Shown: one piece after another, positions 3,956 to 21,847 of the stretch | Numbering within the stretch: position 1 is the first letter of the stretch | Layout of the letters: every line of letters starts with the position of its first letter | Origin: Candidatus Xianfuyuplasma coldseepsis | Lineage (GTDB): Bacteria; Bacillota_I; Bacilli_A; Izemoplasmatales; Izemoplasmataceae | Length of the DNA: 64,000 bases | Assembly (NCBI RefSeq): GCF_014023125.1 | Contig: NZ_CP048914.1 | Span: 708,698 to 772,697, forward strand | Reading direction: 5' to 3' | Made by a program: the position numbers and the translations under genes | Notes under the pieces: model-generated | Databases searched by the model: none | Told to the model about the DNA's origin: nothing | The model's input: the letters and a program-made list of their open reading frames with translations, nothing else

Positions 3956-4073
3956 GAAATCACTCCCTACGATAATTCTAGCAAAATTCAATGCATATTT
4001 AAAGGTAATTAATCCGTGTGCTTTATATGAAAACAAAAAAAGAAGCAATAACTGGCATCTTTTATTTATATAA

Positions 4074-4150
4074 TGGTAGCGGTGACAGGATTTGAACTGT
4101 ACCAAAGATTTAGAGACCCAAAATGTAATACTTACTCTACCTCCACATAA
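4074..4150 (-). pseudogene. Degenerate tRNA-like remnant, roughly 75% identical to the 3' half of tRNA-Trp. Probably an old att scar.
   Basis: The reverse complement ends ...GGTACAGTTCAAATCCTGTCACCGCTACCA. This T-arm and 3' end resemble tRNA-Trp (GTACGGGTTCAAATCCTGTCACCCCTGCCA), but the acceptor stem cannot pair and the anticodon arm is degraded. Confidence 0.5.
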
Positions 4151-4763: not shown

Positions 4764-4767
4764 ATAG

Positions 4768-4815
4768 TGGCAGGGGTGACAGGATTTGAACCCGTACTAA
4801 CGGTTTTGGAGTCCG
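4768..4815. repeat. attL: 48-bp direct repeat copying the 3' end of tRNA-Trp (47/48 identical to 21773-21820)
   Basis: TGGCAGGGGTGACAGGATTTGAACCCGTACTAACGGTTTTGGAG(T/A)CCG is present at both positions. Confidence 0.85.
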
Positions 4816-5207: not shown

Positions 5208-6290
5208 ATGAAAAAGACGACATCCTTCAATAAAGATTTGTTTAAAAAAAGTTTAGTTAATAGTTTAAGTAATTATAAAGAGGGTTCTAAACAACAAGTA
5301 GAGCGCACTCCTAAGTATTCTACTGGAATAATTCCTTTGGATGATTTACTTGAAGGTGGTTTCCCAATGGGAAGCATAGTTGGCTTTGGTTCAGAAGCCG
5401 GTGTAGGAAAAACAACCATACTTTTACAAGCTTGTGCAAACATTGTTAAGAAGTACAACAAGACTGTTTACTACATTGATGTTGAGAATGGAGCAAAACT
5501 AGACTTGATCTACAAAATGGAATACACAGATATGTTGTACCATCCTGAATCAAATCCAGAAGGCAGGTTTTATCTACTATCATTCAAAACTATACAAGAC
5601 ATTGTGAGTTTTATTAACCAGGCTGCGAAAGGTCAAGATACTGCCGTAATTGTAATTGATTCTGTAACACAAGTTGTGGATGAAGAATCCAAAGAGAAAG
5701 ATGATTTGGATGTATCTAATAAACAAAAGGGAAAAATCGCAACAATGTGGTCTAAAGCATCAAGAGCTTTGAACACTATTATCGGTGACTCTGACATTAG
5801 TCTAATCATGGTTCATCAAGCAAGACAAAAACTAAACGACTTCAACCCTAAAACCACTTCTGCTGGTGGGAATGCTCTAAAACATATCACCTCAGTTGAG
5901 TTATGGGCAAAAAAGGGGAAATACATAAACGAGAAATATGTAACAGTTGACAAGGCGTCAAACTCAATAGGTTTCAATGTTAAACTTCAGAGTTTGAAGT
6001 CTAGATGTGGAGATTCGGACTCTTCAAGAAATCTAGTACTTTTCAAGGGTAAAGGCGCTGTTAATGTTTTTGCTGTAAAGGAATGGCTTGAAGAGTATCA
6101 GTATTATGATAAAAAGAAAGAGGAATACATCCCGTACTTCACTAAAAACGACCCTTGGAAGACATACAACATTCCTCAGTTAAGTATCTACATTAAGGAG
6201 AGATCTTATACAAAAATTCTTGAGCAGCTAAACTACCATAGAGATGAACTTATTCCATATGTTATACAACAACTCGAATCAAATTGGTAG
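5208..6290 (+). CDS. RecA-superfamily (KaiC/RadA/DnaB-C-like) ATPase
   Basis: Walker A GFGSEAGVGKTT, followed by YYIDVE and Walker B-like VIVIDSV. Strong RBS AAAGGAGAAGG. Confidence 0.6.
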   Translation: MKKTTSFNKDLFKKSLVNSLSNYKEGSKQQVERTPKYSTGIIPLDDLLEGGFPMGSIVGFGSEAGVGKTTILLQACANIVKKYNKTVYYIDVENGAKLDLIYKMEYTDMLYHPESNPEGRFYLLSFKTIQDIVSFINQAAKGQDTAVIVIDSVTQVVDEESKEKDDLDVSNKQKGKIATMWSKASRALNTIIGDSDISLIMVHQARQKLNDFNPKTTSAGGNALKHITSVELWAKKGKYINEKYVTVDKASNSIGFNVKLQSLKSRCGDSDSSRNLVLFKGKGAVNVFAVKEWLEEYQYYDKKKEEYIPYFTKNDPWKTYNIPQLSIYIKERSYTKILEQLNYHRDELIPYVIQQLESNW

Positions 6291-6483: not shown

Positions 6484-6966
6484 CTATAAATCATCAATTA
6501 TTTGTTTTCTTTTAGTGTTGTATTCATCCTCAGTGATAATACCTTTGTCTCTTAAAGAAGTTAACTTTTCTAGTCGCTCAGTAACGTCAGTATCTTGCTT
6601 CTGAATTTTCGGTTTAAAGTGTTTGGATTTATCTATCCTACTAAATCTTGTGTTCATAGATTCAAGATATTTATCAATCCATCTAGGTGCTGATTGGAAT
6701 CCAACAGATCCATCCATTGAGTCAGCTTGAATATTAACTTTCGTTCCATCTTCAACTCGACTAAAAGTAATTCTTAACTTGGCAGGATTCAATGGAGGAA
6801 AGAATTTCATTGGGCACTTAATTACTATTGAACCAATTCCCCTATTGTTGCTAACTACCTTACCAATGTCGTTACCAGCATTTATGCATAAGTTAAATGC
6901 ATCATCAAATTCTAAAGGTAGGACCATTTCTCTAGTCCCCTTTTTAAACATTGTACCTACTAACAT
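6484..6966 (-). CDS. SHOCT-domain protein (uncharacterised N-domain plus a C-terminal SHOCT oligomerisation motif)
   Basis: The C-terminus LEKLTSLRDKGIITEDEYNTKRKQIIDDL matches the SHOCT pattern. RBS GGAGGTG. Confidence 0.5.
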   Translation of the reverse strand: MLVGTMFKKGTREMVLPLEFDDAFNLCINAGNDIGKVVSNNRGIGSIVIKCPMKFFPPLNPAKLRITFSRVEDGTKVNIQADSMDGSVGFQSAPRWIDKYLESMNTRFSRIDKSKHFKPKIQKQDTDVTERLEKLTSLRDKGIITEDEYNTKRKQIIDDL

Positions 6967-7135
6967 GTTACACCTCCATAATCCTATATTAAACCAGAAG
7001 TAATCATGTAATCAATAAAAACTGCTTACAAAAAGTCCCGCACAGTGTAATTTTTCATAAAAACTTGATCATTCTTCACCAAGAAAGACATTAAAGGGGG
7101 ATGTATTTTCCTTCCCAAACATACTAACTACAGAG

Positions 7136-7471
7136 TTAGACTTCGTTAGCTCCATCAATGTACTTGTCATAATCGATGTCTTTGGTTTTATCAAGACTGA
7201 TAAAAGTAACCTTATCAGCTACAACTGTTAAGTCTTTTACGATGATCTCTAAGTGTGCCTTAACTCCGATCATGCTTCCAACCTCGATATGTTCTTTAAT
7301 AGCATTTGATAAATGCCTAGATAGTCTTACATTAATCTCATCAGTGTGGTTTTCTGTTTCGTTTACATTAGTAACCAACAACGAGATTAATAACTCTTCA
7401 GGATTTCCAGCACTAGTAACAAAGTCATATATACCAGTAACCTTACCTACCAAAATGACTTGATTCAACAT
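7136..7471 (-). CDS. SSB-like OB-fold protein (short)
   Basis: The N-terminus MLNQVILVGKVTG... resembles the SSB start (MxNxVxLxGRL). The start was set at the ATG with an AAAGGAG RBS. The track ORF begins at an upstream TTG. Confidence 0.45.
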   Translation of the reverse strand: MLNQVILVGKVTGIYDFVTSAGNPEELLISLLVTNVNETENHTDEINVRLSRHLSNAIKEHIEVGSMIGVKAHLEIIVKDLTVVADKVTFISLDKTKDIDYDKYIDGANEV

Positions 7472-7559
7472 GGAAATCAACTCCTTTCAACTATAGTTGA
7501 TGTATTAAGTATAACCGGTTAAGCGCCTAAATGCAGCCCTAAAATAGAAAAAGATGATA

Positions 7560-8234
7560 CTATTGAACTGTATCATCTGTATTCTCTGTATTTGACTTCT
7601 TAGGTGATTTTATTTTCTTGATTGTCACTTTCACTATGTTTTGTAGAACCAGAAAATCTTGTTTGACATCTGTCTTTATTACATCTAGAGTTAAGTATCC
7701 TTTACGAACCAGTACTATTGTTACTACACCACTACCTGTTATCGAAATCCAAAAGAATGATAGGAAGATATAATGAGAGCCAAGTAAATCCCATCTAGTA
7801 ACTTCAATGAATGAAGCATAATGATCGTTGGTATAAAATAACTGCTCACTTGAGAAAACAAATCGCTCAGCACCAACATCATCTGTTGTGGCATTGATAT
7901 ATGCTTCAGTATATGAATATCCGTCTGGTAGTAAAACTGGATCTCTAGTATTGTCGTATACAGCATAAACTGTTACATCGTATTCCCCAGGAGCAACTCC
8001 TTGTGACTTAGGCACGTAATTGCTAGGCAATTCATCATACTCTAGTATATACATTGCGACATGATCATAATCAGTATATGTTTTATAACGTCTAGCATTC
8101 ACATCTGTACTCATTGACATAATTAACAGAAAAAGTACCACAGGAAGGAAAATGTATCTTATCCTTCTTCTAAATGACTCTTGTTCTAAACTTAAAAGAA
8201 ACTTGTCTATACTATCTCTAATCTTCTGATTCAT
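7560..8234 (-). CDS. Membrane protein: N-terminal TM, a roughly 120-aa extracytoplasmic domain, and a C-terminal TM plus Lys-rich tail
   Basis: 224 aa. Hydrophobic segments IFLPVVLFLLIMSMS and IFLSFFWISITGSGVVTIVLV. Its start overlaps the upstream gene by 17 nt. Confidence 0.5.
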   Translation of the reverse strand: MNQKIRDSIDKFLLSLEQESFRRRIRYIFLPVVLFLLIMSMSTDVNARRYKTYTDYDHVAMYILEYDELPSNYVPKSQGVAPGEYDVTVYAVYDNTRDPVLLPDGYSYTEAYINATTDDVGAERFVFSSEQLFYTNDHYASFIEVTRWDLLGSHYIFLSFFWISITGSGVVTIVLVRKGYLTLDVIKTDVKQDFLVLQNIVKVTIKKIKSPKKSNTENTDDTVQ

Positions 8235-9420
8235 CCACTTTATCCATAAGGAACTTTACAGCAGATGTAACTGAGTTCAAATTGAATCTATGATTACTAT
8301 CATATGCATTTGGGATACTGAACACTGCTCCAGCATCAAGTAGTACTTTAGCAATAGCAAGTCCATCTTCAAAATTCACTTCTTCTAAGGCTAGATCTAG
8401 AGATTTCTTATCAACTATGTTGATCAATGCTTTGACAGCCATCAAGTCGTTTGCTTTTACTGCATCAATGATTCCATTGGACATCTGATGTTTGTTAAGA
8501 TTCATATTAGATACTCTATCTTGAACGTATGCTCGATCATTAATTTTCAAGAGATTCTCAACAGTCTTTAGATCATAGTTATCATATAGGAACTTAGCAC
8601 ACTCTGTAGCCTCATAATTAATCGCAAAGTCAAACATGTCCTTGTTCACATTATATTTGCTTCTATCGAGGAAGTACTTAAGAATATGTACTACATCTTT
8701 CTCTATTGCAACCTGAACTAGTTTAGGGACACCCCTGTCTCCCATTCTCACTAATCTTAATTCGGGAATAAGTTTTAATGTCTCGTCATTGGTACAAGCT
8801 AGAACGGCAGAAACGTATTCCTTCATATTCTCTGAGAGGTTTGCATACATGGGTAAAATTTTCTTACCTATTCTTAGCGAACCGCTTCTCTCTGATAATC
8901 TAGGTATCTCTAATTTACCATGATGATAACTAACAACATTGCCTTCTTCATCTTTTATCGGAGTACGGAAACTCGACTGTAGTAATTTCAAATCGTTGTT
9001 CTTAATAAGAAATGCAACAAATCGAGGATTGTTATTCAGTGACTCAATGATAAGTTGTTTAGAAAAGAGAAATTTGAATTTCTCTAAATCGTTACTCTCA
9101 ATACAATAGTCTAATAATGTCTTACCATTACTATCAGGCTGTTCAGGAGCCAAATCTGGATTGATTTTATCAATGTCTTGGTTATAAAACTTGCTTAACA
9201 TTGTTTCTCGCTCTGAACCAGCATATAGGATGTCATCCACTTTTACATCTAGAAACTCTGCAATCATCATTAGGTTCGAGATCTCAAATGAACTCTTACC
9301 ACTTAAATTCTGAGATACTGCTTGTTTGGATATACCAAGATAATCAGCCAAATTCTCTTGTGTATGTCCCTTTAATCTGAGTTGCTCTTTGATAAATTTT
9401 CCAATTTCAACTGTGTTCAT
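8218..9420 (-). CDS. XRE-family HTH protein with a large alpha-helical (possibly ankyrin-like) C-terminal domain
   Basis: The HTH is GHTQENLADYLGISKQAVSQNLSGKSSFEISNLMMIAEFL. Ankyrin-like segments include GLAIAKVLLDAGAVF. The start was set at ATG 9420 (MNTVEIGKF), 7 nt after AGGAGG. The track ORF starts further upstream. Confidence 0.6.
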   Translation of the reverse strand: MNTVEIGKFIKEQLRLKGHTQENLADYLGISKQAVSQNLSGKSSFEISNLMMIAEFLDVKVDDILYAGSERETMLSKFYNQDIDKINPDLAPEQPDSNGKTLLDYCIESNDLEKFKFLFSKQLIIESLNNNPRFVAFLIKNNDLKLLQSSFRTPIKDEEGNVVSYHHGKLEIPRLSERSGSLRIGKKILPMYANLSENMKEYVSAVLACTNDETLKLIPELRLVRMGDRGVPKLVQVAIEKDVVHILKYFLDRSKYNVNKDMFDFAINYEATECAKFLYDNYDLKTVENLLKINDRAYVQDRVSNMNLNKHQMSNGIIDAVKANDLMAVKALINIVDKKSLDLALEEVNFEDGLAIAKVLLDAGAVFSIPNAYDSNHRFNLNSVTSAVKFLMDKVDESED

Positions 9421-9445
9421 TTTGATTCCTCCTTTTGATAACTTC

Positions 9446-9474
9446 ATTATAGTCAAGTTGTGATTTATTTGTAA
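9446..9474 (-). promoter_or_regulatory. Promoter (TTACAA-17-TATAAT, minus strand) for the HTH/membrane gene pair
   Basis: The -10 is 9446-9451 and the -35 is 9469-9474, both read on the minus strand, about 20 nt upstream of the RBS. Confidence 0.45.
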
Positions 9475-9668
9475 GCAACTAATAGTTAATTTCTCCTTTA
9501 CAATATAAAAATGATACATAGTAAAGTAAACCACTCATTAACTTTCTTTTACTTAAGCGGTATTAAGACTATGTATCAAACTATTTCGGAAGTAAATTAC
9601 CCCTTATTTTTATTTTATCATTTTACAAAATAAAGTATAACAAAAATTTTCAAATGTCTCTTCTTGTT

Positions 9669-10766
9669 TTAGAATGGCAGATCATCTTCCGACACTTCAA
9701 TATAAACAGGTTTCTTTTCATTAATACGTACTTCAAGTAGTTTGTTTTGAAAAGAATGTATTAATGCATCCAATAATTCTTCATTTTTGTCTTTCAATGC
9801 TTCGTATATTTTATTTAAAACTTTGATATCTTCAACAGGAATTCCAACATTGCATTTAACTTTTATATCTAAGGAATCAAAAAGATCTTCAGCTCTAACA
9901 GAATGTTCAAACCAATTCCTTTTTATCAATATGTTTAGATTGTCTAAAATCTCTTTAATTGATGCAATACTAAATTCATTATAGACATTAAATCGGGGTT
10001 CAAAATGAACATCTCCATTCCAAATTTCTAATCTATCATAAAATATACTTACCATACTATCTAAAGCCTGTTGTCTCAACTCATCATAATTAATCTCTGG
10101 TTTAGTTTTATCTAAAGGAGATTCTTCGATGGAATCTTTGTTTTCTTCATCGTAATCAATGGTTATTTGAAGTTCTTTCTCTAGCTTATTAAGCTGCCCT
10201 CCATCTATTATTGACATTGAAAAATTAGTTTCATCTAGAAACTCAGTTTTCAAAGCATTAGAGTTGTTTAGAAATCCTTTGTCGGATGTTATAAAGTATA
10301 GGTTTTGATATTTCTTCATTTCAAAGTACTCTAGAAGACTAATCCATATCATACTATCTTTAAAACCTTTGTCGCTTGCATTCTCATTGCTGTTGAAAGG
10401 TGGTAACTTATATCGATCTCTTTCAAGTAACTTGTCAAGCATCTTTTTCTTATTGTAGCTGATAACTTTATCCTTAAAATGATGATCAATATATTTATCA
10501 AGTGACTTCTCATAAAGTATTATCTTGTCTTCAAGATTTACTTTATTATTTATCTCAACATACTCTACTAACTCTTCTTTTAGTACCTCTATTTTTTCAT
10601 AAGATTTTTTTATGTCTCTTGCTTTAATGTTCTTAATCTCTTTAACAACAATTTCAGGGACAAAAACATCATATTGTTTTTTACACTCTACTATAAATCT
10701 TGTTATGTAATTGTCCTTTCGTTGTTCTATTAGAAAATTTGTATCTATTACAATAGCATTTTCCAT
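9669..10766 (-). CDS. PIN-like nuclease domain protein (N-terminal PIN-like, roughly 190-aa uncharacterised C-domain)
   Basis: An N-terminal IVIDTNFLI acidic motif, and a later FITSDKGF motif typical of the last PIN strand. 365 aa. Confidence 0.5.
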   Translation of the reverse strand: MENAIVIDTNFLIEQRKDNYITRFIVECKKQYDVFVPEIVVKEIKNIKARDIKKSYEKIEVLKEELVEYVEINNKVNLEDKIILYEKSLDKYIDHHFKDKVISYNKKKMLDKLLERDRYKLPPFNSNENASDKGFKDSMIWISLLEYFEMKKYQNLYFITSDKGFLNNSNALKTEFLDETNFSMSIIDGGQLNKLEKELQITIDYDEENKDSIEESPLDKTKPEINYDELRQQALDSMVSIFYDRLEIWNGDVHFEPRFNVYNEFSIASIKEILDNLNILIKRNWFEHSVRAEDLFDSLDIKVKCNVGIPVEDIKVLNKIYEALKDKNEELLDALIHSFQNKLLEVRINEKKPVYIEVSEDDLPF

Positions 10767-10865: not shown

Positions 10866-11327
10866 CTATTTTCTTTTCACCCATTTTGCCTCACCCTTTT
10901 TTTTAAAGAGTGTAATAAAATATGATTCAACTGCCGGTGCCATCCAATGTGGTTCTATCAAAAAAGATTTATAATATACAAACCTACTAGGAATTGGCAA
11001 AGTCATTATATAGTCATAGATTTTCTTTATGCAAGATTTTGTTTTTGCTTGAGTGTTTTGCACAATGTGAGACTTGATACGTGTGTTAATACCCTTTTTA
11101 TTTTCCTTCTTACCAATATATTGACACCTACCAAGGTTATCAAATATAAAATAGATGTTATTAGAAGAAGGTTCCAAGACCTTTGTATCTTTTCGTTTCA
11201 ATACTTGGTATCTTTTTGGTTTGTTGTAAACCATTCTTTTGAATTTAGATGGATTTTGAATGTCGTTTTCGATTGTGTCGAGAACGTTCTTTATACATGC
11301 AAAACCACTGAAATTGTAATCGGCCAT
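10866..11327 (-). CDS. Small GIY-YIG-like nuclease domain protein
   Basis: NIYFIFDNLGRCQYIGKKENKKGINTRIKSH matches the GIY-x9-YIG-x8-R-x3-H layout. A downstream ESYFI glutamate is present. RBS GAGGT. Confidence 0.5.
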   Translation of the reverse strand: MADYNFSGFACIKNVLDTIENDIQNPSKFKRMVYNKPKRYQVLKRKDTKVLEPSSNNIYFIFDNLGRCQYIGKKENKKGINTRIKSHIVQNTQAKTKSCIKKIYDYIMTLPIPSRFVYYKSFLIEPHWMAPAVESYFITLFKKKGEAKWVKRK

Positions 11328-11346: not shown

Positions 11347-12162
11347 CTAAAAATCTGCACTTATATGTGAAAGAGAAATTATTTTGGTTAGCAACAAATC
11401 AATAGACTCCTCTTTATACTTTCTTTCTTTCGACCAGTCTCTAATCTTCTTTATGAGAATTTCAATATCGCTTTTATTATCAACAATAATATATTCAATA
11501 TCTTTAATATCAAGTTTTAACTTGAAGGCACTTTTTAAGTCATCACGAATATCTTTGTTGAACAGGTTCATCTGTTCTTCCCAAATGAACAAACTTTTGC
11601 CTGTCGTATCTTCAAACACATTCTTATTCGGTACGAATCTCCATTCATTTTCTAGATAGTACCTAGTAACCTTATCATCTTTCCTGATTATCATTGGTTT
11701 TGAATAAGTTTTCATCAATCTTAGGTAGTTTAGAGCATTTGTTTGTAGATATAAAGAATCTCCATCTAGTACCTCTTTAGACATTTGATATTCTCTTGAA
11801 TCTGTCACTTTTGCCACCAATAATCTCATCTCAGTGTATATAGGCATCTCTGAGCTATAATACCAAAGTGGGGTCAACCCATTATGCAAACCCCAAGATT
11901 GCTTCATTCCAATGGCAATTCCACCATATTTTGTTTTGTGTTCTTTTATGCTTGTTAATGGGATATCACAAAAGCATACCATTGGGAAGGTACTCGATCC
12001 TAGTTCATCTATTAATTCAGAATCAAATAATTCTTCCTCAAACCCAAATAAATCATCAATTTGTTCTTTATTATAGAAGGGTATAAATCCATGTTCTAAA
12101 ATACTTATAATAGTGTCTATATCTCTTGTAAAATGAAACAATGAGTTAGTTTTATAAGCCAT
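11347..12162 (-). CDS. AbiGi-like abortive-infection family protein (tentative). Its start overlaps the hsdR stop.
   Basis: The N-terminus [29 protein letters not shown] resembles the AbiGi family N-terminus as I recall it. ATG 12162 is preferred because it has a GAGGT RBS. It overlaps the hsdR 3' end by about 11 nt. Confidence 0.4.
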
Positions 12163-15100
12163 ATTGTACCTCATTTTCACACACCAATTCAGTTTGTTCC
12201 ATAATCAATTTCACTGATCGATCGTAGTTGTTTGGGTCTGTTGGATCATCTGGTGGATACTTGTATTTCTTAAGTAGCACTTTGATTTCGAATCTCATTT
12301 TAGCTCTAACTGAATCTCTAATGTTCCAGTCTACGGTAGTGCTTGCTTTAATTTTAACAGTTAGCTCTTTGGCAATATCTTTGAGGACATCAATACCCAT
12401 TACCTCTTGAGCCTTGATGTTTGATGCAAGTGCTTGATAGAATGCATATTCATCTTCAGTGAGTCCAGATTCTTTACCAGCTTCAGCAGCTTTAGTAATA
12501 TCTTTTGCTAAGGCTATCAATTCTTCAATGACTATAGTAGAATCAATAAGTCTCTTGTGATATTTAGCTAGGGAATCCTCTAACATTTCAGAGAACAATC
12601 TTGACTGAACCACTGTTTTGCGTGAAAATGCTCTGATCTTACCTTGGATAAGACGTTTGAGAAGTTCAACTGCAACATTCTTATGATCCATGTTCTTGAA
12701 CTCTTCTAAGAACTCATCTGATAGGATAGAGATATCAGGTTTAGCTAAACCTATTTCAGACATAATATCTATAACCTTGTCAGATTTTAAGGACTTAGAA
12801 ATCAATTGATTCAACTCTCTATCGAGTTGGTCTCTTGATTTCTTTTTATTGTTATCAGTAGTAAGTTTGATAATTCCCGCTCTTACAGACTTATAGAAAC
12901 CTATCTCAACATTGTGCTTCTCTGCTGTTTCAGTAGTAGCACAAAGAGAGTAAGCTTTTGTGAGTTCTGAAGTTAGTTTGATATAATCTTCTTTTCTCTT
13001 AATCGATAAACCAACAATATAGTCTATTGTAGCCATAATGATTTTGAGTTTATCTGTCTGTCTACCTTTGAAATATAGAGAGTAGTCGAACCCATGAAGT
13101 AATTCTCGCACCAGTTCCAGTTTCTCCATCATAACAGAAACAGCTAGTTCTGTATCTACTCCAGTTTGTTCTCTATCACTATCTGTATATTGAGATAGAG
13201 CTTTTTTAAGACTTTCTGCAATACCTATATAGTCAACAATAAGTCCACCTTGTTTCTCTTTAAACACACGATTCACTCGTGCGATTGCTTGCATTAAGTT
13301 ATGTCCTTGCATAGGTTTATCAACATACATGGTATGTAAACTTGGAACATCAAATCCTGTAAGCCACATATCACGTACTATTACGAGTTGTAGTTCATCG
13401 TCATTGTCTTTCATACGTCTAGATAATGTATCTCTAGTTTGTTTATTACCGATATGTGTTTGCCAATGCTCAGGATCTGAAGAACTACCTGTCATAACGA
13501 CTTTTATTTTACCTTTCATCAACTCATCTGAAAGCCAATCAGGCCTTAGTGCAATAATTGCATCATGTAGTTCAACAGCAATTCTACGACTCATAGCTAC
13601 GATCATACCTTTTCCAACTTCGGTTTCCATAGAAGCTTGACGTTTTTCAAAATGTTCTACAAGATCTTTAGCTACAACCTTAATTCTAGGTTCAGCTCCA
13701 ACAATTGCTTCTAACCGTGCCCATTTACGTTTGAGACCTTCTTTTTGGACATCTTCTTGGTATTCGGTTATATCATCATAATTCTCATCTATAAGCTCGT
13801 ATTCTTCAGTGAAGTCAATTCTCGCTATGCGGCTTTCGTAGTAGATTTTAACGGTTGTTCCATCTTCCACTGCACGGGTCATATCATAGACGTCAATATA
13901 GTCTCCAAAGACTGCTCTTGTGTTCTTGTCAGTAGTTTCTATTGGTGTACCAGTAAAACCAATATATGAGGCATTTGGAAGGCTGTCACGCATGTGTTTG
14001 GCATAGCCATACTTCTCATATGCCTCTTCTTTTGTTTTTACAACTTCAGCTTTAAAACCATACTGGCTTCGATGTGCCTCATCAGCCATAACAATAACGT
14101 TCTTACGTTCTGTTAAAGGTGTCACTAACCCTTCTTCGTTAGGAGCAAACTTATGTATAGTAGTAAAGATGATACCTCCTGAATCTCTACCATCTAATAG
14201 TTCTTTTAGATGGTCTCTTGATTCTGCTTGTTGTGGATAGGAACGTAATAAATCTTTTGACTTAGAGAACGTAGAGAACAATTGATCATCTAGATCATTT
14301 CGATCTGTTATTACAACAATAGTTGGATTTGATAGTTCTTGTGAGATTACCATCTTACCAGCATAGAAGACCATAGATAGTGATTTACCACTACCTTGTG
14401 TATGCCATATAACTCCAATACGTCTATCCCCATCTTCACTAGTAGCAGTATAAGTGCTTTCTAATGCAGTATTCACAGCATGGTACTGATGGTATCCAGC
14501 TAATATCTTATTGTAGTCATTGTTGTTCTCTTGGAACAAGATGAACTGTTTGATAATATCCATAAAGATATCTTTACGGAACATACCTTTTAGTAAGGTT
14601 TCTAGTTGAGGTAATACTTTAGGAGCAATATTAATACCATCTATTGTACGCCAAGACATATACCATTCTTCATTTGAAGTAATCGTACCAGCTTTAGCTA
14701 CGTGTCCATCACTAATAACATTGAATGCGTTGTAGACAAATAAATTACTAATAGATTTTTGATAGTTCTTGATTTGTCTGTAAGCATGATGAACTGTCAC
14801 CTTCTCATCCGAAGGTGTTTTAAGTTCGAAGACAACCAATGGTAAACCATTGACAAAAAGAACTATATCAGGACGTTTTTCAACTCTGTTCTCAACAACA
14901 GTGAATTGATTCACAGCAAGGAAGTCATTGTTCTCAATATTCTCAAAGTCAAAGAGTTGGATGTTTGGATATACTGTGCTTCCATCCTCTTCTTTATGTA
15001 GGACAGTAACTCCCTCATTAATCATCTTATGAAAGGCATGATTATTAGCAATCAAAGATACTTGTTTAGGAATGGTGATCTCTCTAATCGCATCTTCAAT

Positions 15101-15304
15101 GACTTGTCTTGGAACTGTATCATTAATACGAAGAAGCGCTTCTCGTAAGCGCTCAATTAATATTACTTCTTCATATGAATCCCTTTCAGGATATTCCCCG
15201 TCAAATGAGATATTAGGACCAAACTCAATATTGTATCCTAATTCTTCTAGCCACTGTAAAGCAGCTTCCTCTACATCCGACTCATAAAATACTTTTACTC
15301 CCAT
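12152..15304 (-). CDS. hsdR: Type I restriction enzyme R subunit (HsdR)
   Basis: About 1050 aa with a DEAH box ([10 protein letters not shown]) and SF2 helicase motifs. Operon position after hsdM/hsdS. ATG at 15304 with a GAGGGG RBS. The track start at 15319 is a TTG. Confidence 0.9.
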
Positions 15305-15308
15305 TTCA

Positions 15309-16634
15309 TCACCCCTCAATAGGTACTTCTATCTCTCCACTCATTAGTTTTGGTAATAGTGTATCTCTAGTTATGGTTAACACTTCATTCTCTTTACCAT
15401 TCTGCTGTATTTGTTCATAAGTATCCAAATAAAAACTAGCTAGTCTGTCTATCCATTCTTTGTTTGGGATTACAATCTTGTATTCATTCAATATAAACTT
15501 CAAATCAAAATTCTTTATTCCAGTAGTCCCATTCTCATAATTGAAGAAAACATTATTGTTATACAAGTATTCAAAAGTAAGACTTATATAAGGTGATAAA
15601 TTTATGTCTTTTGGCTCAATAGCTCTACAAAAATTAGTGCATATAACCTTATCATTATATCTATGTATAAATTCTTTTGATATCAAAGCTGTTCTACCAG
15701 TCGACTGTTTAGGACTTCCCCCCGATATCTCAACTACTATATCTCCAGCTTTCAATTTCTTCTTGAGAAAGTTCTTATTAAGTATATATCTGGTTGGGCA
15801 TTTTCCTTTATCCCCAACTTTGATTGAGTTTATATCTGCACCTCTAATACACACAACTTCAGAAGTATAGTTACCAGTTATTGCTTCTTTACCCCAGTCA
15901 CCTGCAATCGTTGTAGCTACAAGATCTCCTAGACTCCCGACTTCCCATCCTCTAGGAATTAATCCCAAGTCACTTTCTATCATTTCTCCACCACTAGATT
16001 TATATGGTTCTCCATCTTCATTAGGATACTCAAAATCAACAAACCATTGTTTATATAATGCTTGTGCCATTTCTTCAAGGTTCTTATTGATTTTGTTGTT
16101 AAGTTCTATTTTGTCATCAAGTGATGATAAGATGTTTGATATTGTTTTTTGTTCCGCTAAAGGTGGTAAAACAACATTAATATTTTTAATGTTTTTTATA
16201 GGTAATTTTGCTTGTACCGCCCCTACAGTTCCCATTCTAATTTCTTGAATACCATTGGGTGAGTTCAAGTAATAATAAAGAAATCTATAGTCAATTTTCT
16301 CAGAATGATTTGTTAATTTAACGCAATTTTCTGTCAAACTTGCATTATCCAATGTTTTACCTACTATACCCGTTAAACCTATAGTCCCAACTATGGATAA
16401 TAGTACATCTTTATAATTAGTAATGTACCGTGAAATATTACTAAATGTCTCCTCAATAATATATTGAATCCCATCAAATTTCTCAAGTTTTGTAATATTA
16501 TTCAAATCTCGCACACGAATATATGGATGTGTAGTTTTATAATCTACTAAAGAATGTCCTTTAGGTAATCTCTTCCCGCCCTTTATCTCAACTATTTCTT
16601 CTAATTTTACATTTCTCCAATCATCATAACTCAT
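15309..16634 (-). CDS. hsdS: Type I R-M specificity subunit (HsdS), two TRDs
   Basis: Conserved central [14 protein letters not shown] and C-terminal LLPKLMSGE motifs. Overlaps hsdM and abuts hsdR. Confidence 0.9.
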
Positions 16635-18111
16635 AACCTATTCCCCTTAAGTTCTCCTTGATTTTTTCCTCAAGAGATTTAGATTCTTCAAATAGGTCTG
16701 ATAATTCTGAAGTAAGTCTATCCATTTTCTCTTCAAATGGAATACCATCATCTTCCTCTTCTTCAATACCTACATAACGTCCAGGAGTTAAAACATAGTC
16801 ATGTAACTTAATTTCTTCAATTGTAGATGATTTGCAGAATCCATCAACATCTTCATAATTTTCTTCATTTTTCCAATTATGGTAAGTAGTGTAGATTTGT
16901 TCTATCTCTTCATCTTTTAATTCTCTATGTTTTCGCGTTTCCATATATCCCATTTTACGAGCATCTATAAATAATACTTTATCTTTTCTACCGTTCTTAT
17001 TTTTGGAAACAAACCATAAGGATACAGGAATAGCCACATCATAGAATAGTTGTGAAGGCATAGCTACAATACAGTCTACTAATCCTTCTTCTAGGATTGA
17101 TTTACGGATATCGTACTCCTCACTTCTTGATGTTGATAAAGAACCATTAGCTAAAACAAATCCAGCAGTACCTCTTGGACTTAATTTACTTATCATATGT
17201 GAAATCCATGCATAGTTCGCATTTGTTTTTGGTGGAACTCCCCATTTCCATCTAACATCATCTAATAAATGAGGTTGTCCCCAGTCTTTAATATTAAAAG
17301 GTGGATTGGCTAATATATAATCTACTTTCAATGTTTTATGTTGATCGTTAGTAAATGTATCTCCATCTCTTTCACCAAGATTTGCATCAAGTCCTCTGAT
17401 TGCAAGATTCATTTTTGCTAGTCTCCATGTAGTAGCTACATATTCTTGTCCGTAAATTGAGATATCACCAAGTCTACCTTGATGTTCTTCAACAAACTTT
17501 GCAGATTGCACAAACATACCACCACTACCACAACAAGGGTCATATACTCTACCTTTATAAGGTTCAATCATATTTACTAATAATTTAACAATACTGGGTG
17601 GTGTATAAAACTCACCTTCCGTACTACCAAACTTCTTAAGGAAGTACTCATATACTCTACCTAACACATCTTTAGCTCTTGCTTCCTTACTTCCTACGTT
17701 AAAAGAGAATAGGTCTACCAACTCACCTAATCGTGTCTTATCTAGAGCTGGTCTTGCATAGTTCTTAGGTAAGACATTTTTTAATGGAACATTCTCACGC
17801 TCAATAAGGATCATTGCATTATCGATTACTTGTCCGATAGTAGGTTGTTTCGCTTGTGACTTAATATAATCCCATCTAGCTTCTTTCGGTACGAAGAATA
17901 CATTCTCAGACTCGTATGCATCTCGATCTTCTTCCATACCAGGATAGACTTGCTTCACTTCGTTATATCGTTCTTCAAAGGAATCAGAGATGTACTTCAA
18001 AAAAACAAGCCCCAATATAACGTGTTTATATTCAGAGCTTTCAATATTACCCCTTAACTTATCTGCCATTTCCCACAGTTTATTCTCGAATCCTAAATTT
18101 ACTTTTGCCAT
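16624..18111 (-). CDS. hsdM: Type I R-M N6-adenine DNA methyltransferase (HsdM)
   Basis: NPPFN catalytic motif and the HsdM N-terminal domain. 495 aa. Confidence 0.9.
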   Translation of the reverse strand: MAKVNLGFENKLWEMADKLRGNIESSEYKHVILGLVFLKYISDSFEERYNEVKQVYPGMEEDRDAYESENVFFVPKEARWDYIKSQAKQPTIGQVIDNAMILIERENVPLKNVLPKNYARPALDKTRLGELVDLFSFNVGSKEARAKDVLGRVYEYFLKKFGSTEGEFYTPPSIVKLLVNMIEPYKGRVYDPCCGSGGMFVQSAKFVEEHQGRLGDISIYGQEYVATTWRLAKMNLAIRGLDANLGERDGDTFTNDQHKTLKVDYILANPPFNIKDWGQPHLLDDVRWKWGVPPKTNANYAWISHMISKLSPRGTAGFVLANGSLSTSRSEEYDIRKSILEEGLVDCIVAMPSQLFYDVAIPVSLWFVSKNKNGRKDKVLFIDARKMGYMETRKHRELKDEEIEQIYTTYHNWKNEENYEDVDGFCKSSTIEEIKLHDYVLTPGRYVGIEEEEDDGIPFEEKMDRLTSELSDLFEESKSLEEKIKENLRGIGYEL

Positions 18112-18869: not shown

Positions 18870-19430
18870 ATGAGAATAGGATATATGAGAGTATCAACAG
18901 TCGCTCAAAACTTAGATACACAGAAAGCGGCTCTGGAATCATATGGAGTAGAAAGAATCTTTGAAGAGAAAGCGTCTGGAAGAAACATTGAAAGACCAGT
19001 CCTTAAGGAGTTGCTTAAGTTCATCAGATCAGGGGACACGCTTGTAATATATGATTTATCTAGACTGGGTAGGACAGTACATCAAGTTGTAAAATTATTA
19101 GATGACTTCATAAAAAGAAACATTGGTTTCGTATCGCTTAAGGAATCACTGGACATAACCACACCGATGGGTAAAGCAATGGCACACATAATTGCAGTGT
19201 TTAATCAAATGCAAGTGGATGTTCAAAATGAAAAGACTAGAGAAGGACTACTAATCGCAAAAGCAAATGGTAAAAAACTTGGGAGAAAAGCCATTACTCA
19301 AGATAAGATTCTAATGATACAAGCATTATGTAAAGAAGGGTATTCGAATCAAGAAGTTGCAGATAAATTAGGAGTCTCAAGAAGAACTGTAATTAACTAC
19401 AAGAAGGGCTCTAAACAGATAAAAAACTAA
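18870..19430 (+). CDS. Small serine recombinase (resolvase/invertase family)
   Basis: MRIGYMRVSTVAQNLDTQ N-terminal catalytic motif (S10), and a C-terminal HTH (GYSNQEVADKLGVSRRTV). 186 aa. Confidence 0.85.
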   Translation: MRIGYMRVSTVAQNLDTQKAALESYGVERIFEEKASGRNIERPVLKELLKFIRSGDTLVIYDLSRLGRTVHQVVKLLDDFIKRNIGFVSLKESLDITTPMGKAMAHIIAVFNQMQVDVQNEKTREGLLIAKANGKKLGRKAITQDKILMIQALCKEGYSNQEVADKLGVSRRTVINYKKGSKQIKN

Positions 19431-20450: not shown

Positions 20451-21683
20451 ATGAAGGAGTTGATAAAAGTGAAAATGAATCAAGCCCTAGATAATTTTTT
20501 AAAGCTGAAAGAGGCAACGTTTAAACCTGAAACTGTAAGATACTATAAAGGAAAGATACCTACGATTAAGAAGTTCATGGGTAATCTAGATGTTGAAGAA
20601 GTAACAGATGTTGACATTGCAGACTTTCTACTCAAACTCAAAGAAAGAAACCCGGAAATCTCCAAACGAACACAAAGGAAATACGTTGACATCATCATGA
20701 GTATAGTCAACAAAGGAAAAAAAGAAGCTGATAAACTTAAATTTACCAGACCAAAACCTGTTTTGAAAAAGATTAAAAAGGTATCAGATGAAAACATAGC
20801 TCTGATACTTAATTACTATGTATCAAATCTTAGCTATGCAAATAATCACAAGTACTACTTGTTAATCAATCTTCTTCTTGATACAGGTGTCCGCATTAAT
20901 GAACTAGTAAACATTAAGATGAAGAACATCAATCTATCTATGAATAGCATCCATCTAGATGTGACCAAGACAGATTCAGATCGAACTGTGTATTTTAGTG
21001 ATAGGACAAGACAAATACTTCTAAGCTACATTAACAAACACATTGATGGTCACGAATATCTCTTCTACAGCCAGGATGGTAAGGGTCATATTCATAGAGA
21101 CTCTGTATACAAATCTATAGCGAGATTGCAAAAAAGACTAAACATAAAACAATCAATAAGTCCACATAAGTTTCGTCATGCTTTTGCAACAAAGCTTCTT
21201 AGAAAAACAGGTGACATCGAAGTGGTAAGACAATTGCTTGGGCATAAGCATCTTGAAACCACACAAATATATCTAGACTATGAAGACGAGTACTTGAAGA
21301 AGGTCTACGATAAAGCAATGAATAACAATGGTATGTATAATGCCAAAAATCAAAATAAGGAGGATCAAGATTTGAGCAAAGCTAAAGTACTTCAAGATCA
21401 TTATCAAGTGAAATGTGATGTGTGTAACACAGACATAAACACTCCAAAAGATGACATACAGATATATTGTCCAAAATGTGGATCAGTTATCACAGTGTTA
21501 CACGATAAAGACAATCATGCTTATGCAATTGAAACCGGAGTTCTTGTTGCATCTTCATTTCTCCCTGGAGAACCTAAGAAATATGTTATACACAAAGATG
21601 GTAATCGAGGTAACAATAACGTTGCAAATCTACAATGGAGCGATCACCCCGACTATCCAAGCCAAGATAAACAAATCAACTAG
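20451..21683 (+). CDS. int: Tyrosine site-specific integrase with a C-terminal Zn-ribbon plus HNH_3-like extension
   Basis: R (TGVRINEL), HKFRHAF, and LGHKHLETTQIYLDY catalytic motifs. The C-terminal roughly 120 aa contain CDVC...CPKC and HKDGNRGNNNVANLQW. The true start is possibly GTG 20469 or ATG 20475, after AAGGAG. Confidence 0.85.
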   Translation: MKELIKVKMNQALDNFLKLKEATFKPETVRYYKGKIPTIKKFMGNLDVEEVTDVDIADFLLKLKERNPEISKRTQRKYVDIIMSIVNKGKKEADKLKFTRPKPVLKKIKKVSDENIALILNYYVSNLSYANNHKYYLLINLLLDTGVRINELVNIKMKNINLSMNSIHLDVTKTDSDRTVYFSDRTRQILLSYINKHIDGHEYLFYSQDGKGHIHRDSVYKSIARLQKRLNIKQSISPHKFRHAFATKLLRKTGDIEVVRQLLGHKHLETTQIYLDYEDEYLKKVYDKAMNNNGMYNAKNQNKEDQDLSKAKVLQDHYQVKCDVCNTDINTPKDDIQIYCPKCGSVITVLHDKDNHAYAIETGVLVASSFLPGEPKKYVIHKDGNRGNNNVANLQWSDHPDYPSQDKQIN

Positions 21684-21772: not shown

Positions 21773-21847
21773 TGGCAGGGGTGACAGGATTTGAACCCGT
21801 ACTAACGGTTTTGGAGACCGCTGTGCTACCATTGACACCACACCCCT
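21773..21847 (-). tRNA. tRNA-Trp: tRNA-Trp (CCA anticodon), the integration target
   Basis: Reverse complement AGGGGTGTGGTGTCAATGGTAGCACAGCGGTCTCCAAAACCGTTAGTACGGGTTCAAATCCTGTCACCCCTGCCA. The acceptor stem pairs, and the anticodon loop is CTCCAAA. Confidence 0.9.

Follow-up and report, generated by a model that had tools for sequence, protein, structure and literature searches.

An overlapping gene pair encoding an HTH-ankyrin regulator and a predicted membrane-tethered barnase-family ribonuclease in Candidatus Xianfuyuplasma coldseepsis

Barnase is among the best-studied enzymes, and the bacterial versions of this ribonuclease known so far, guarded by barstar, either leave the cell as free enzymes or form part of large toxins. 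Barnase is a basic protein and barstar an acidic one. In wall-less bacteria, the mycoplasma membrane nucleases, e.g., MnuA, are surface enzymes that harvest nucleotides; as a rule these are lipoproteins, from nuclease families other than that of barnase, and the parallel drawn with the RNase described here concerns lifestyle. In the sigma/anti-sigma arrangement, two overlapping genes code for a transcription factor, which comes first, and a membrane protein, which comes second.

The gene pair considered here was found in the window, i.e., the whole stretch of 64,000 nucleotides that was analysed, from Candidatus Xianfuyuplasma coldseepsis, a wall-less marine bacterium of the Izemoplasmatales. 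It associates an HTH-ankyrin protein (HTH-Ank) with a barnase-type RNase, a pairing which has not been described before. What is new is an RNase of this type predicted to be tethered to the membrane at both ends, devoid of barstar, with an ankyrin transcription factor as its only conserved partner. At slightly less than an even chance, the pair is an autoregulated mobile two-gene cassette that displays an RNase at the cell surface, with a regulator that may bind to this membrane protein.

Organization of the gene pair and of its upstream region

The open reading frames bear out the overlapping minus-strand pair reported in the preliminary description, including its 17-nt overlap, and shorten the first protein from the 401 residues given there to 400 (Table 1). 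The ATG of the RNase gene lies 17 nt ahead of the TAG stop codon of HTH-Ank, an arrangement that suggests translational coupling of the two genes. Both starts deserve a comment. The reading frame of HTH-Ank extends mechanically up to a GTG at 9534, and the ATG at 9420 is favoured by an alignment of six loci. The database record of the RNase (QMS84832.1/WP_258878454.1) consists of 180 aa, starts with MNARRY at the GTG of residue 45 and lacks the first transmembrane (TM) helix. Since the N-terminal 44 residues, including this helix, are kept in the full-length homologues, the database annotation is considered short by 44 residues, with the resulting loss of TM1, and has been corrected here.

Table 1. 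Features of the gene pair and of its upstream region (positions in the window)
Feature	Position	Strand	Basis and remarks
Operator-like motif TTAACTATTAGTTG	9476..9489	minus	Directly upstream of the -35 box; fits the conserved TTAACTAnTGATTG block
Sigma-70-type promoter-like site of the bicistronic operon, CTTACA / 18-nt spacer / TATAAT	9446..9475	minus	Consensus scan, 10/12
RBS of HTH-Ank, AAGGAGG	9428..9434	minus	7 nt before the ATG; read from the sequence; kept in the upstream alignment
HTH-Ank gene	8218..9420	minus	400 aa; ATG at 9420; GenBank QMS84833.1, RefSeq WP_258878455.1; ORF listing, 100% database match
XRE/Cro-C1-type HTH DNA-binding domain of HTH-Ank	9211..9420	minus	aa 1-70
Divergent ankyrin-repeat domain of HTH-Ank	8221..9159	minus	aa 88-400
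Overlap of HTH-Ank stop and RNase start	8218..8234	minus	17 nt
Membrane-tethered barnase-family RNase gene	7560..8234	minus	224 aa; ORF listing
RNase TM helix 1 / signal anchor	8106..8162	minus	aa 25-43; hydropathy and charge counts; model helix 19-42, pLDDT ~90
Barnase/binase-like RNase domain, predicted extracytoplasmic	7797..8078	minus	aa 53-146; sequence and Foldseek matches
RNase TM helix 2	7704..7772	minus	aa 155-177; hydropathy/charge counts and model
RNase basic cytoplasmic tail	7563..7703	minus	aa 178-224; alignments; model helix 183-209

In the alignment of six upstream regions, the -10 and -35 blocks are kept and the TTAACTAnTGATTG block is conserved upstream of the HTH-Ank genes. 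The operator-like motif recurs exactly, at an equal position, in L001, L005, L006 and L007. A search of the 64-kb window allowing up to two mismatches yields a single match, located at the pair's own promoter, which rules out a wider regulon within the window. With respect to the HTH domain and the conserved upstream motif, HTH-Ank probably autoregulates the operon via this putative operator.

Structural features of the two proteins

The N-terminus of HTH-Ank is an XRE helix-turn-helix (PF01381, E 1.3e-9), which displays both the HTH_3 domain and the five-helix fold of the XRE/Cro-C1 group. The structures closest to this HTH include phage and ICE repressors, and its weak matches include antitoxins of the HipB/Y4mF and spr1629 types. 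The repeats that follow, previously described as helical and ankyrin-like, match Ank_2 with an E-value of 3.2e-6 and 28.1 bits, against a cut-off of 27.3 that no single stretch passes alone. At the family level, Ank_2 is matched by 13 of 30 members (best 6.9e-11), Ank_3 by seven and Ank_4 by five. Matches of the ankyrin domain in the PDB are weak (E 0.008-0.04) and consist of the designed protein 4hb5, matched four times by the repeats with ankyrin-consensus residues, and K1L (3kea). The AlphaFold model (pLDDT 83) predicts about eight short helix pairs in the ankyrin domain, interrupted by two β-hairpin insertions (aa 150-169 and 367-381). The domain as a whole has a pI of 5.4, and its last three repeats a pI of 4.7.

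A plain cI-type repressor, envisaged in the preliminary description as a possible outcome, would carry a peptidase or a known sensor domain; both were looked for in HTH-Ank and none was found, and a cI/LexA-like repressor with peptidase was rejected on this ground. A TPR receptor of the RNPP/AimR type was equally rejected: the whole-chain Foldseek matches to such proteins have low TM-scores and are regarded as artefacts that any HTH followed by helices would produce, sequence models assign the repeats to ankyrin and not to TPR, and the AimR model aligns to the HTH alone (positions 1-50 of 365). The absence of any recognizable named system, as stated at the outset, is upheld by PADLOC-DB v2, which touches HTH-Ank in its HTH only (PDC-M69A, E 1.5e-12, aa 6-72) and has no match for the RNase.

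The second gene had been taken for a generic membrane partner, and the nature of its central domain had gone unnoticed. According to both the sequence comparisons and the structural model, the domain located between the TM helices is an RNase of the barnase/binase family. It matches binase (4haa) with an E-value of 2.1e-8 in phmmer and 2.8e-10 with the family profile, and shares about 28-32% identity with barnase and binase. PF00545 is matched by all 13 RNase relatives, the window RNase alone scoring 21.8 bits, under the curated 24-bit cut-off. The structure predicted for the RNase, a step proposed earlier for both proteins, points in the same direction: the top 50 PDB matches of the RNase in Foldseek are all binase or barnase (E 1e-5, probability 1.0), with a TM-score of 0.65 (range 0.62-0.67 when a single chimeric entry is set aside), for an AlphaFold model with a pLDDT of 78, falling to just 51-66 across aa 71-120.

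The putative catalytic residues K76, E110, R124 and H138 correspond to K27, E73, R87 and H102 of barnase and are invariant in a 13-sequence alignment. Among the 16 members of the main lineage, the equivalents of K27, R87, H102 and Y103 are kept throughout and that of E73 in 14; a second RNase lineage also keeps the R87, H102, Y103 and E73 equivalents. In the 17-sequence set, E110 is replaced by Ser in L005 and L006, and K76 by Asn in L011; owing to the Ser of L005 and L006 at the catalytic Glu position, what the family conserves may be a function other than catalysis. The equivalent of R83, the second active-site arginine of barnase, is V120 in the window RNase, and V or I family-wide. At the R59 position of the guanine loop stands T96, and R97, one residue downstream, may substitute for this Arg. 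Compared with barnase and binase, the helix2/helix3 region is shorter by about 12 residues.

The earlier reading of an N-terminal TM helix, an extracytoplasmic domain and a C-terminal TM helix holds, the two helices (about aa 25-43 and 155-177) flanking a domain of about 100 aa. The positive-inside rule and the model predict an N-in/C-in topology in which the RNase domain faces the outside. A basic N-terminal segment (RRRIR), predicted to be cytoplasmic, precedes TM1, and the net charge summed over 14 RNase homologues amounts to +31 in the N-segment, -16 after TM1, -27 before TM2 and +49 in the tail. Similarly, the ecto-domain has a pI of about 4.3 and the cytoplasmic segments pIs of 9.4-10 (tail 9.4). 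The tail contains a (I/V)(I/V)KxDxxxD motif, with invariant D189 and D193, in all 16 main-lineage members. A pore-forming or holin-like two-TM abortive-infection effector was rejected as an identity for this protein, the inter-TM domain being a barnase-type RNase predicted to point outward.

Distribution and genomic setting of the two families

Both families are very rare: the RNase yielded 12 matches among 5.8 billion proteins and the ankyrin domain 33 representatives among 1.84 billion. Six of the RNase homologues lie on short contigs of about 1-3 kb. The question raised in the preliminary description, whether homologues of the pair are linked in other genomes, is answered positively, since RNase and HTH-Ank are linked in seven of the nine RNase loci, in three arrangements. 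An overlap of 14-17 nt characterizes five loci (window, L001, L002, L005 and L006), which also share the conserved promoter/operator and in which the two proteins co-diverge (r = 0.81). Because this overlap recurs in four loci besides the window with proteins only 40-60% identical, the pairing is not ascribed to chance. In L004 the RNase again adjoins an HTH-Ank, here a divergent one (34% identity), and in L011/L012 a TM-barnase-TM protein of the second lineage (28% identity) precedes a further divergent HTH-Ank by 370 nt.

Each partner also occurs on its own. In L003 and L008, two of the nine RNase loci, no HTH-Ank was found within 2.6-6 kb, and HTH-Ank relatives devoid of RNase occur in L007, L009, L010 and L013-L015. 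Three of these relatives (L010, L013 and L015) directly follow large serine recombinases and others precede unrelated genes, a setting typical of mobile-element regulators. A metagenome scan with a narrower ankyrin-domain alignment found one locus.

The pair of the window sits in an integrative island of about 17 kb at a tRNA-Trp gene, together with a type I restriction-modification (R-M) system, AbiGi and a PIN protein (PIN_12). Defence genes (R-M, Abi, DarTG, AIPR, DUF4238) surround four of the nine RNase loci. No conserved third gene was found: the downstream SSB-like gene (7136-7480) does not occur as a conserved neighbour in the other loci, and a 207-aa neighbour is common to L001 and L002 only, at different positions. 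Relatives of both proteins were absent from IMG/VR and from GenBank phages, and relatives of the ankyrin domain from plasmids. The plasmid matches of the RNase are limited to three B. cereus records, pAH820_272 and two equally long ones, which code for an SLH-barnase protein. Taking into account these searches, a prophage or plasmid origin was rejected.

A barstar homologue was found neither in the window nor in loci L001-L010 by tblastn with a barstar query, and the Pfam barstar model matched none of the neighbour genes scanned.

Possible functions and comparison with known systems

The autoregulated cassette that we favour would operate as cargo of the tRNA-Trp island. As suggested by the conserved HTH and the upstream motif, HTH-Ank would bind the operator at its own promoter and set the expression of both genes. 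In agreement with the predicted topology, TM1 would act as a signal anchor and the RNase domain would be exported during synthesis and never fold in the cytoplasm, which we propose as the explanation for the absence of a barstar gene. The displayed RNase would then cut extracellular RNA at the cell surface. Its simplest pay-off would be the scavenging of nucleotides and phosphate near transporters, because a wall-less host cannot retain secreted enzymes and belongs to a lineage living on extracellular nucleic acids (PMC8397711, PMC10470597). However, it has been stated that strain zrk13 "only degrades DNA" (PMC10470597), so that a major RNA-scavenging role is not favoured, and a purely nutritional role leaves the defence-gene setting of four of the nine RNase loci unexplained. 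Possible roles are scavenging, RNA sensing and defence, the last of these suggested by the neighbourhood of the pair only. More speculatively, the ankyrin domain could touch the membrane protein and thereby make the activity of the regulator depend on how much RNase is present or on the state it is in, a physical contact suggested by the gene arrangement, namely the conserved overlap and the co-inheritance of both genes. The likelier point of contact would be the basic cytoplasmic helices of the RNase rather than its acidic RNase domain.

Whether the RNase is instead a toxin has to be weighed against this cassette. HTH-Ank would then replace barstar, with an ankyrin domain inhibiting an RNase folded in the cytoplasm and an HTH repressing the operon, and the pair would form either a type II toxin-antitoxin (TA)-like or abortive-infection module or an exported competitor toxin with its immunity protein. 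The order of the genes, in which the regulator precedes the enzyme and overlaps it by a conserved 14-17 nt, recalls the type II TA operons, and the bicistronic operon indeed starts with a DNA-binding protein, which is probably autoregulatory as judged from its sequence and shows weak resemblance to HipB/Y4mF- and spr1629-type antitoxins. Ankyrin repeats are listed among the immunity proteins (Imm-ank) of polymorphic toxin systems (PMC3482391), although the gene order is opposite to the toxin-then-immunity order of these systems (PMC3482391). The lack of a barstar gene, which the B. cereus relative possesses, and the defence-island setting are also consistent with a toxin. However, the predicted export of the RNase places the producer's cytoplasm out of its reach, so that the logic of addiction fails, and for the same reason the inward-killing effector of an abortive-infection module, the logic originally evoked for the pair, is unlikely; the defence-rich neighbourhood supports that proposal, and an RNase predicted to face outward does not fit it. 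In addition, HTH-Ank is missing at two of the nine RNase loci (L003, L008) and the HTH-Ank family partners unrelated genes too, the RNase domain (pI 4.3) and the ankyrin domain (pI 5.4) are alike acidic, whereas barnase is basic and only barstar acidic, a PADLOC match of the RNase is lacking, and 400 aa are far above the size of a typical antitoxin. All things considered, a toxin is unlikely.

Other readings concern the way in which the two proteins communicate, if they do. As a receptor-regulator pair, the barnase-like ecto-domain would mainly serve as a sensor of extracellular RNA or nucleotides, with cytoplasmic helices that hold or release HTH-Ank, which we regard as quite improbable. A transcription factor followed by an overlapping membrane protein reproduces the sigma/anti-sigma arrangement, the tail motif is invariant in the main lineage, the basic cytoplasmic helices face an acidic C-terminal ankyrin block, and ankyrin repeats are a protein-binding module for which no other ligand is obvious; moreover, L005 and L006 retain the pair and its overlap after the loss of the catalytic Glu. 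Against a sensor speak the intact catalytic set of 14 of the 16 main-lineage members, including the window RNase, the tail motif kept by the solo RNases of L003 and L008 without a neighbouring regulator, and the second-lineage RNase of L011, whose cytoplasmic tail is almost absent and which yet adjoins an HTH-Ank. A version in which the membrane protein is a receptor instead of, or besides, an enzyme, with an ecto-domain that binds or cleaves extracellular RNA and basic helices that hold the acidic ankyrin repeats at the membrane, RNA thus controlling the transcription of a mobile element, is less probable still. It is also rather unlikely that the proteins share nothing but a promoter, HTH-Ank being the repressor of a mobile element and the RNase an unrelated cargo or exclusion gene without any protein contact, in the manner of the superinfection-exclusion genes located beside prophage repressors. 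Such a loose association would account for the HTH-Ank relatives placed after large serine recombinases or before unrelated genes, for the solo occurrence of both proteins and for the phage and ICE repressors among the closest HTH structures. In contrast, the linkage recurs in three arrangements and in two divergent lineages of each partner, a recurrence unlikely for such rare families unless they depend functionally on each other, and the exact overlap is conserved.

The significance of the pair will vary with its function. Should the ankyrin domain turn out to inhibit the RNase or to dock on it, the pair would represent a new solution for self-protection or a new kind of signalling from the membrane to DNA. 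An RNase that simply harvests RNA at the surface of wall-less cells would be a mobile and regulated addition to the nucleic-acid foraging proposed for the Izemoplasmatales of marine sediments. An RNA-controlled receptor, if true, would amount to an undescribed bacterial sensing of environmental RNA, following the logic of sigma/anti-sigma or BlaR1/BlaI.

With respect to the described systems, among the closest are barnase (B. amyloliquefaciens) and binase (B. pumilus, formerly B. intermedius), which share with the window RNase the PF00545 fold, the general acid/base pair, the K27 and R87 equivalents and export, predicted in our case. The window RNase differs from them in being tethered by N- and C-terminal TM helices instead of released, and in being acidic instead of basic, with loss of the R83 and R59 equivalents; unlike the barnase-barstar couple, it has no barstar and its conserved neighbour is the upstream HTH-ankyrin protein. 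The nearest relative in annotated plasmids is the 1131-aa SLH protein WP_001092157.1 of B. cereus pAH820_272, whose barnase-like domain is 35% identical to aa 46-145 of the window RNase, and which resembles it as a surface-anchored domain encoded on a mobile element. However, the B. cereus protein uses a wall-binding SLH anchor, carries its barnase cassette at the C-terminus of a large protein and is directly followed by the barstar WP_000351383.1, i.e., immunity after toxin, whereas the window RNase is small and membrane-anchored, with an upstream partner unrelated to barstar.

Type II TA systems such as HigBA, HipBA and MqsRA similarly consist of an overlapping two-gene operon with an HTH protein as probable autoregulator and a BECR-fold RNase in second position, but here the RNase is predicted to be extracellular, the HTH protein comprises 400 aa with ankyrin repeats, and the RNase lacks its partner at two of the nine loci. 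The RNPP/AimR-type regulators (PlcR, PrgX, ComR, Rgg, AimR), which are the top whole-chain Foldseek matches of HTH-Ank with TM-scores of only 0.16-0.25, combine an XRE HTH with long helical repeats and an exported product encoded downstream; HTH-Ank differs from them by its short helix pairs of the ankyrin type in place of TPR, and by a downstream gene for a 224-aa membrane enzyme in place of a secreted peptide. Finally, as a receptor, the pair would be comparable to the ECF sigma/anti-sigma and BlaR1/BlaI systems, in which an outer domain resembling an enzyme signals to the transcription factor that its operon also encodes.

Sequence, fold and topology of the RNase

The second gene of the pair encodes a membrane-tethered RNase of the barnase type, assigned by its sequence, its fold and most of its catalytic residues, with a putative enzymatic activity. 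The window protein alone falls below the Pfam cut-off for PF00545 (E 2.7e-4, 21.8 bits; cut-off 24 bits). Binase and barnase are matched over residues 55-145 in a phmmer search of PDB sequences (E 2e-8). A family profile built from 13 sequences also retrieves binase (E 2.8e-10), and each of the 13 matches PF00545. The top Foldseek matches in the PDB for the AlphaFold model (pLDDT 78) consist exclusively of binase and barnase (E 1e-5, probability 1.0, target TM ~0.65). According to the HMMER alignment used for mapping, K76, E110, R124 and H138/Y139 correspond to barnase K27, E73, R87 and H102/Y103, respectively, and are invariant in a 13-sequence alignment. The position of barnase R83 is occupied by V120 (Val or Ile across the whole family), the Arg of position R59, T96 in the window protein, is not conserved, and the helix 2/3 region is shorter by ~12 residues than in binase/barnase. 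In a 17-sequence set, the catalytic Glu (barnase E73) is replaced by Ser at L005 and L006, two other loci whose RNase homologues may thus be catalytically inactive, and the Lys (barnase K27) by Asn in the distant member from L011. The pair and its 17-nt overlap are retained at L005 (9244-9888) and L006 (1531-2187) despite the replacement of Glu.

Two strongly hydrophobic helices, ~25-43 and ~155-177, flank the RNase domain. Summed over 14 homologues, the net charge amounts to +31 in the N-segment, -16 after the first transmembrane helix (TM1), -27 before the second (TM2) and +49 in the tail. Because this pattern fits the positive-inside rule, both ends are predicted to be cytoplasmic and the RNase domain to face outward. 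The pI of the ecto-domain ranges from 4.1 to 4.9 in the main lineage of closer homologues and reaches 5.9 in L011; both cytoplasmic segments of the window RNase are basic (pI 9.4-10), and the tail contains an invariant (I/V)(I/V)KxDxxxD motif. The deposited annotation (QMS84832.1 / WP_258878454.1) is a 180-aa protein beginning with MNARRY at the GTG of residue 45, devoid of the N-segment and TM1 (window 8103-8234). Since homologues keep the 44 upstream residues and a separate gene call (P0066) gives 224 aa, the long form is, on these comparative grounds, taken here as correct.

The preliminary description had reported a gene pair with a 17-nt overlap, and the RNase gene indeed starts 17 nt inside the HTH-Ank gene. 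Its layout of an extracytoplasmic domain between two TM segments agrees with the hydrophobic helices and the charge pattern, as a predicted topology, and the XRE HTH and ankyrin-like repeats ascribed to the first protein hold for a chain of 400 instead of 401 aa. The pair itself is confirmed and sharpened by the recognition of its second protein as a barnase-type RNase.

Coordinates of the features in the window and of the divergent second-lineage RNase at L011/L012
Feature	Position	Strand	Details
Degenerate tRNA-Trp copy (third)	4053-4121		
Copy of tRNA-Trp 3' part	4767-4815		48 nt
RecA/KaiC-like ATPase	5208-6290	plus	
SHOCT-domain protein	6484-6966		
SSB-like OB-fold protein	7136-7480		114 aa; 79 nt downstream of RNase, no terminator between
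RNase gene	ATG 8234 to 7560	minus	224 aa; QMS84832.1 (protein look-up)
HTH-Ank gene	ATG 9420 to TAG 8218-8220	minus	400 aa; QMS84833.1 (protein look-up)
RBS AAGGAGG	9428-9434	minus	before ATG of HTH-Ank gene
Promoter-like site	9475-9446	minus	CTTACA, 18 nt, TATAAT
PIN_12 protein	9669-10766		365 aa
GIY-YIG-like ORF	10866-11327		153 aa
AbiGi	11347-12180		PADLOC E 1e-43
Type I R-M genes	12152-18111		
Resolvase	18870-19430		
Tyrosine integrase	20451-21683		
Intact tRNA-Trp	21773-21847		
Second-lineage TM-barnase-TM	L011 4049-4630; L012 1871-2452		same in both; almost no cytoplasmic tail

The HTH-Ank regulator and its upstream region

Beyond its HTH, the first protein is, by its sequence, a divergent ankyrin array. 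It scores 28.1 bits against Ank_2 (cut-off 27.3 bits), a family matched by 13 out of 30 relatives (best E 6.9e-11); other relatives match Ank_3, Ank_4, Ank and Ank_5. The best-conserved repeat, PxQPDSxGKTLLDYxIExND, weakly aligns (E 0.008-0.04) with K1L (3kea) and with the designed protein 4hb5, in the latter four times and with ankyrin-consensus residues. In the model (pLDDT 83), short helices form about eight pairs, and two β-hairpins are inserted. Homology to TPR proteins was rejected, the whole-chain Foldseek matches to PlcR, ComR and PrgX (TM 0.16-0.25) being read as an HTH plus helices; the pair is not an RNPP/AimR system. Two metagenomic proteins, P0021 and P0022, combine an HTH 83-84% identical to that of the window with an unrelated C-terminal region, containing an FtsX-like permease domain in P0022, which suggests either domain shuffling or assembly chimeras.

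Six loci share an alignable stretch of 180 nt preceding the HTH-Ank gene, with conserved -35 and -10 elements and a TTAACTAnTGATTG block just upstream of the -35. This motif occurs in the window at 9476-9489 only, with exact matches at the same position in four other loci. Both this block and the HTH, itself highly conserved, speak for an autoregulated bicistronic HTH-Ank/RNase operon, in which the block would be bound as an operator. No terminator-like site was found in window 6900-9800.

Linkage of the two families and genomic setting

Both families are very rare, with 12 RNase members in 5.8 billion clustered proteins and 33 representatives of the ankyrin domain in 1.84 billion proteins. 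A single other genome, an Izemoplasmatales MAG, was found among GTDB species representatives; IMG/VR and GenBank phages yielded no relatives of either family, nor PLSDB plasmids any of the ankyrin domain. The co-occurrence of homologue pairs, proposed as a check in the preliminary description, is conserved in three arrangements, an HTH-Ank neighbour being present at 7 of the 9 distinct RNase loci. The regulator gene ends 14-17 nt past the RNase ATG at five loci (the window, L001, L002, L005 and L006), and the two proteins of these overlapping pairs co-diverge (r = 0.81, ten comparisons). At L004, an 82-aa ORF separates a divergent HTH-Ank (34% identity) from the RNase downstream. At L011/L012, a second-lineage protein of the same TM-barnase-TM architecture (193 aa, 28% identity) comes first, with another divergent HTH-Ank 370 nt downstream of it. 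These three arrangements, the divergent lineages of both partners and the rarity of the families argue for a probable functional dependence, not chance.

The linkage is not absolute. The RNase occurs without an HTH-Ank neighbour at L003 and L008, and HTH-Ank is followed at L007 by nothing but a 65-aa ORF, precedes an 806-aa protein with a hydrophobic N-terminal region at L014, and stands between a large serine recombinase and a 254-aa protein at L013 and L015; shorter relatives (280-320 aa) occur in other mobile contexts. Relatives directly follow large serine recombinase genes at L010 (689-4846, two short paralogues in tandem), L013 (4411-6266) and L015 (1-3382), the place expected of a mobile-element repressor. 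A small family of 65-82 aa (motif GDIHRxLGGYxGxNHxxPxxCxAMR), devoid of any significant Pfam match and, for the L004 member, of any NCBIfam match, lies downstream of HTH-Ank, between regulator and RNase at L004 (2098-2346) and as sole downstream gene at L007 (5308-5505). The gene before the L011/L012 RNase encodes a protein of 284 aa containing a GIY...YIG-like motif.

The pair is carried, as cargo, by a defence-rich integrative island of ~17 kb, delimited by the tRNA-Trp repeat and the adjoining tyrosine integrase; the degenerate tRNA-Trp copy may be left over from an earlier insertion. As listed, the AbiGi ORF (GTG 12180) shares 29 nt with the end of hsdR, and is followed by the GIY-YIG-like ORF and the PIN_12 protein instead of a recognisable AbiGii partner. 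None of the ATPase, SHOCT-domain and SSB-like genes at the island end is conserved beside the pair in other loci. Defence genes also surround the RNase at L002 (type I R-M, AIPR, DarT/NADAR), L003 (Abi_2, DUF4238) and L001 (DUF4238), the remaining RNase loci not being among such genes.

Possible functions and comparison with known systems

The reading preferred here, tentatively and with slightly less than an even chance, is an autoregulated surface RNase cassette. The regulator would control its own operon, TM1 would serve as a signal anchor for an RNase exported while being made, and the enzyme would act on extracellular RNA at the cell surface. Owing to this export, it would need no barstar; barstar is absent from the window and from L001-L010. 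The cell lacks a wall to retain secreted proteins, Candidatus Xianfuyuplasma coldseepsis, to which protein look-ups assign both products, being a cultured, wall-less Izemoplasmatales of deep-sea cold-seep origin (PMC8397711). Extracellular nucleic acids are degraded by Izemoplasmatales according to published descriptions (PMC8397711, PMC10470597, PMC8289736), which makes nucleic-acid scavenging the simplest pay-off. However, strain zrk13 is stated to degrade DNA only (PMC10470597), and scavenging leaves unexplained the defence-island setting and the lost catalytic Glu at L005/L006.

The conserved overlap suggests that the two products are synthesised in a fixed ratio and contact each other. 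Charge gives a slight preference to a contact in which the acidic C-terminal ankyrin repeats dock on the basic cytoplasmic helices, over inhibition of the acidic RNase domain. A repressor accompanied by unrelated cargo, although HTH-Ank relatives occur apart from the RNase, is unlikely given the probable functional dependence. Judged by cytoplasmic action, given the predicted outward topology, and by obligatory pairing, the pair is not a type II toxin-antitoxin system, and the same two tests weigh against the looser reading as a toxin-antitoxin-like or immunity pair, which appears equally unlikely. The abortive-infection module envisaged in the preliminary description is only partly supported, as it fits the defence-rich island but not the predicted outward RNase domain. 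A receptor-regulator pair seems even less probable, and its more specific form, an extracellular-RNA receptor coupled to a transcription factor, lower still.

The pair matches no catalogued defence system, as the preliminary description, which recognised no named one, had anticipated, and literature searches brought up no account of a membrane-anchored barnase with an HTH-ankyrin regulator as its partner. Ankyrin immunity proteins (Imm-ank) exist in polymorphic toxin systems (PMC3482391), in which immunity is encoded after the toxin, whereas the HTH-Ank gene lies upstream in the overlapping pairs. With the barnase family, the RNase shares sequence, fold and most catalytic residues, but differs in its anchoring, its charge, the loss of R83 and the lack of barstar. 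Its nearest relative in annotated plasmids, from pAH820_272 of B. cereus AH820 (L016 950-4641), is a 1131-aa S-layer-homology protein whose terminal barnase-like domain shares 35% identity with the RNase domain of the window protein. Unlike the window RNase, it is directly followed by a barstar gene, and it represents the wall-anchored counterpart of the membrane-anchored enzyme.
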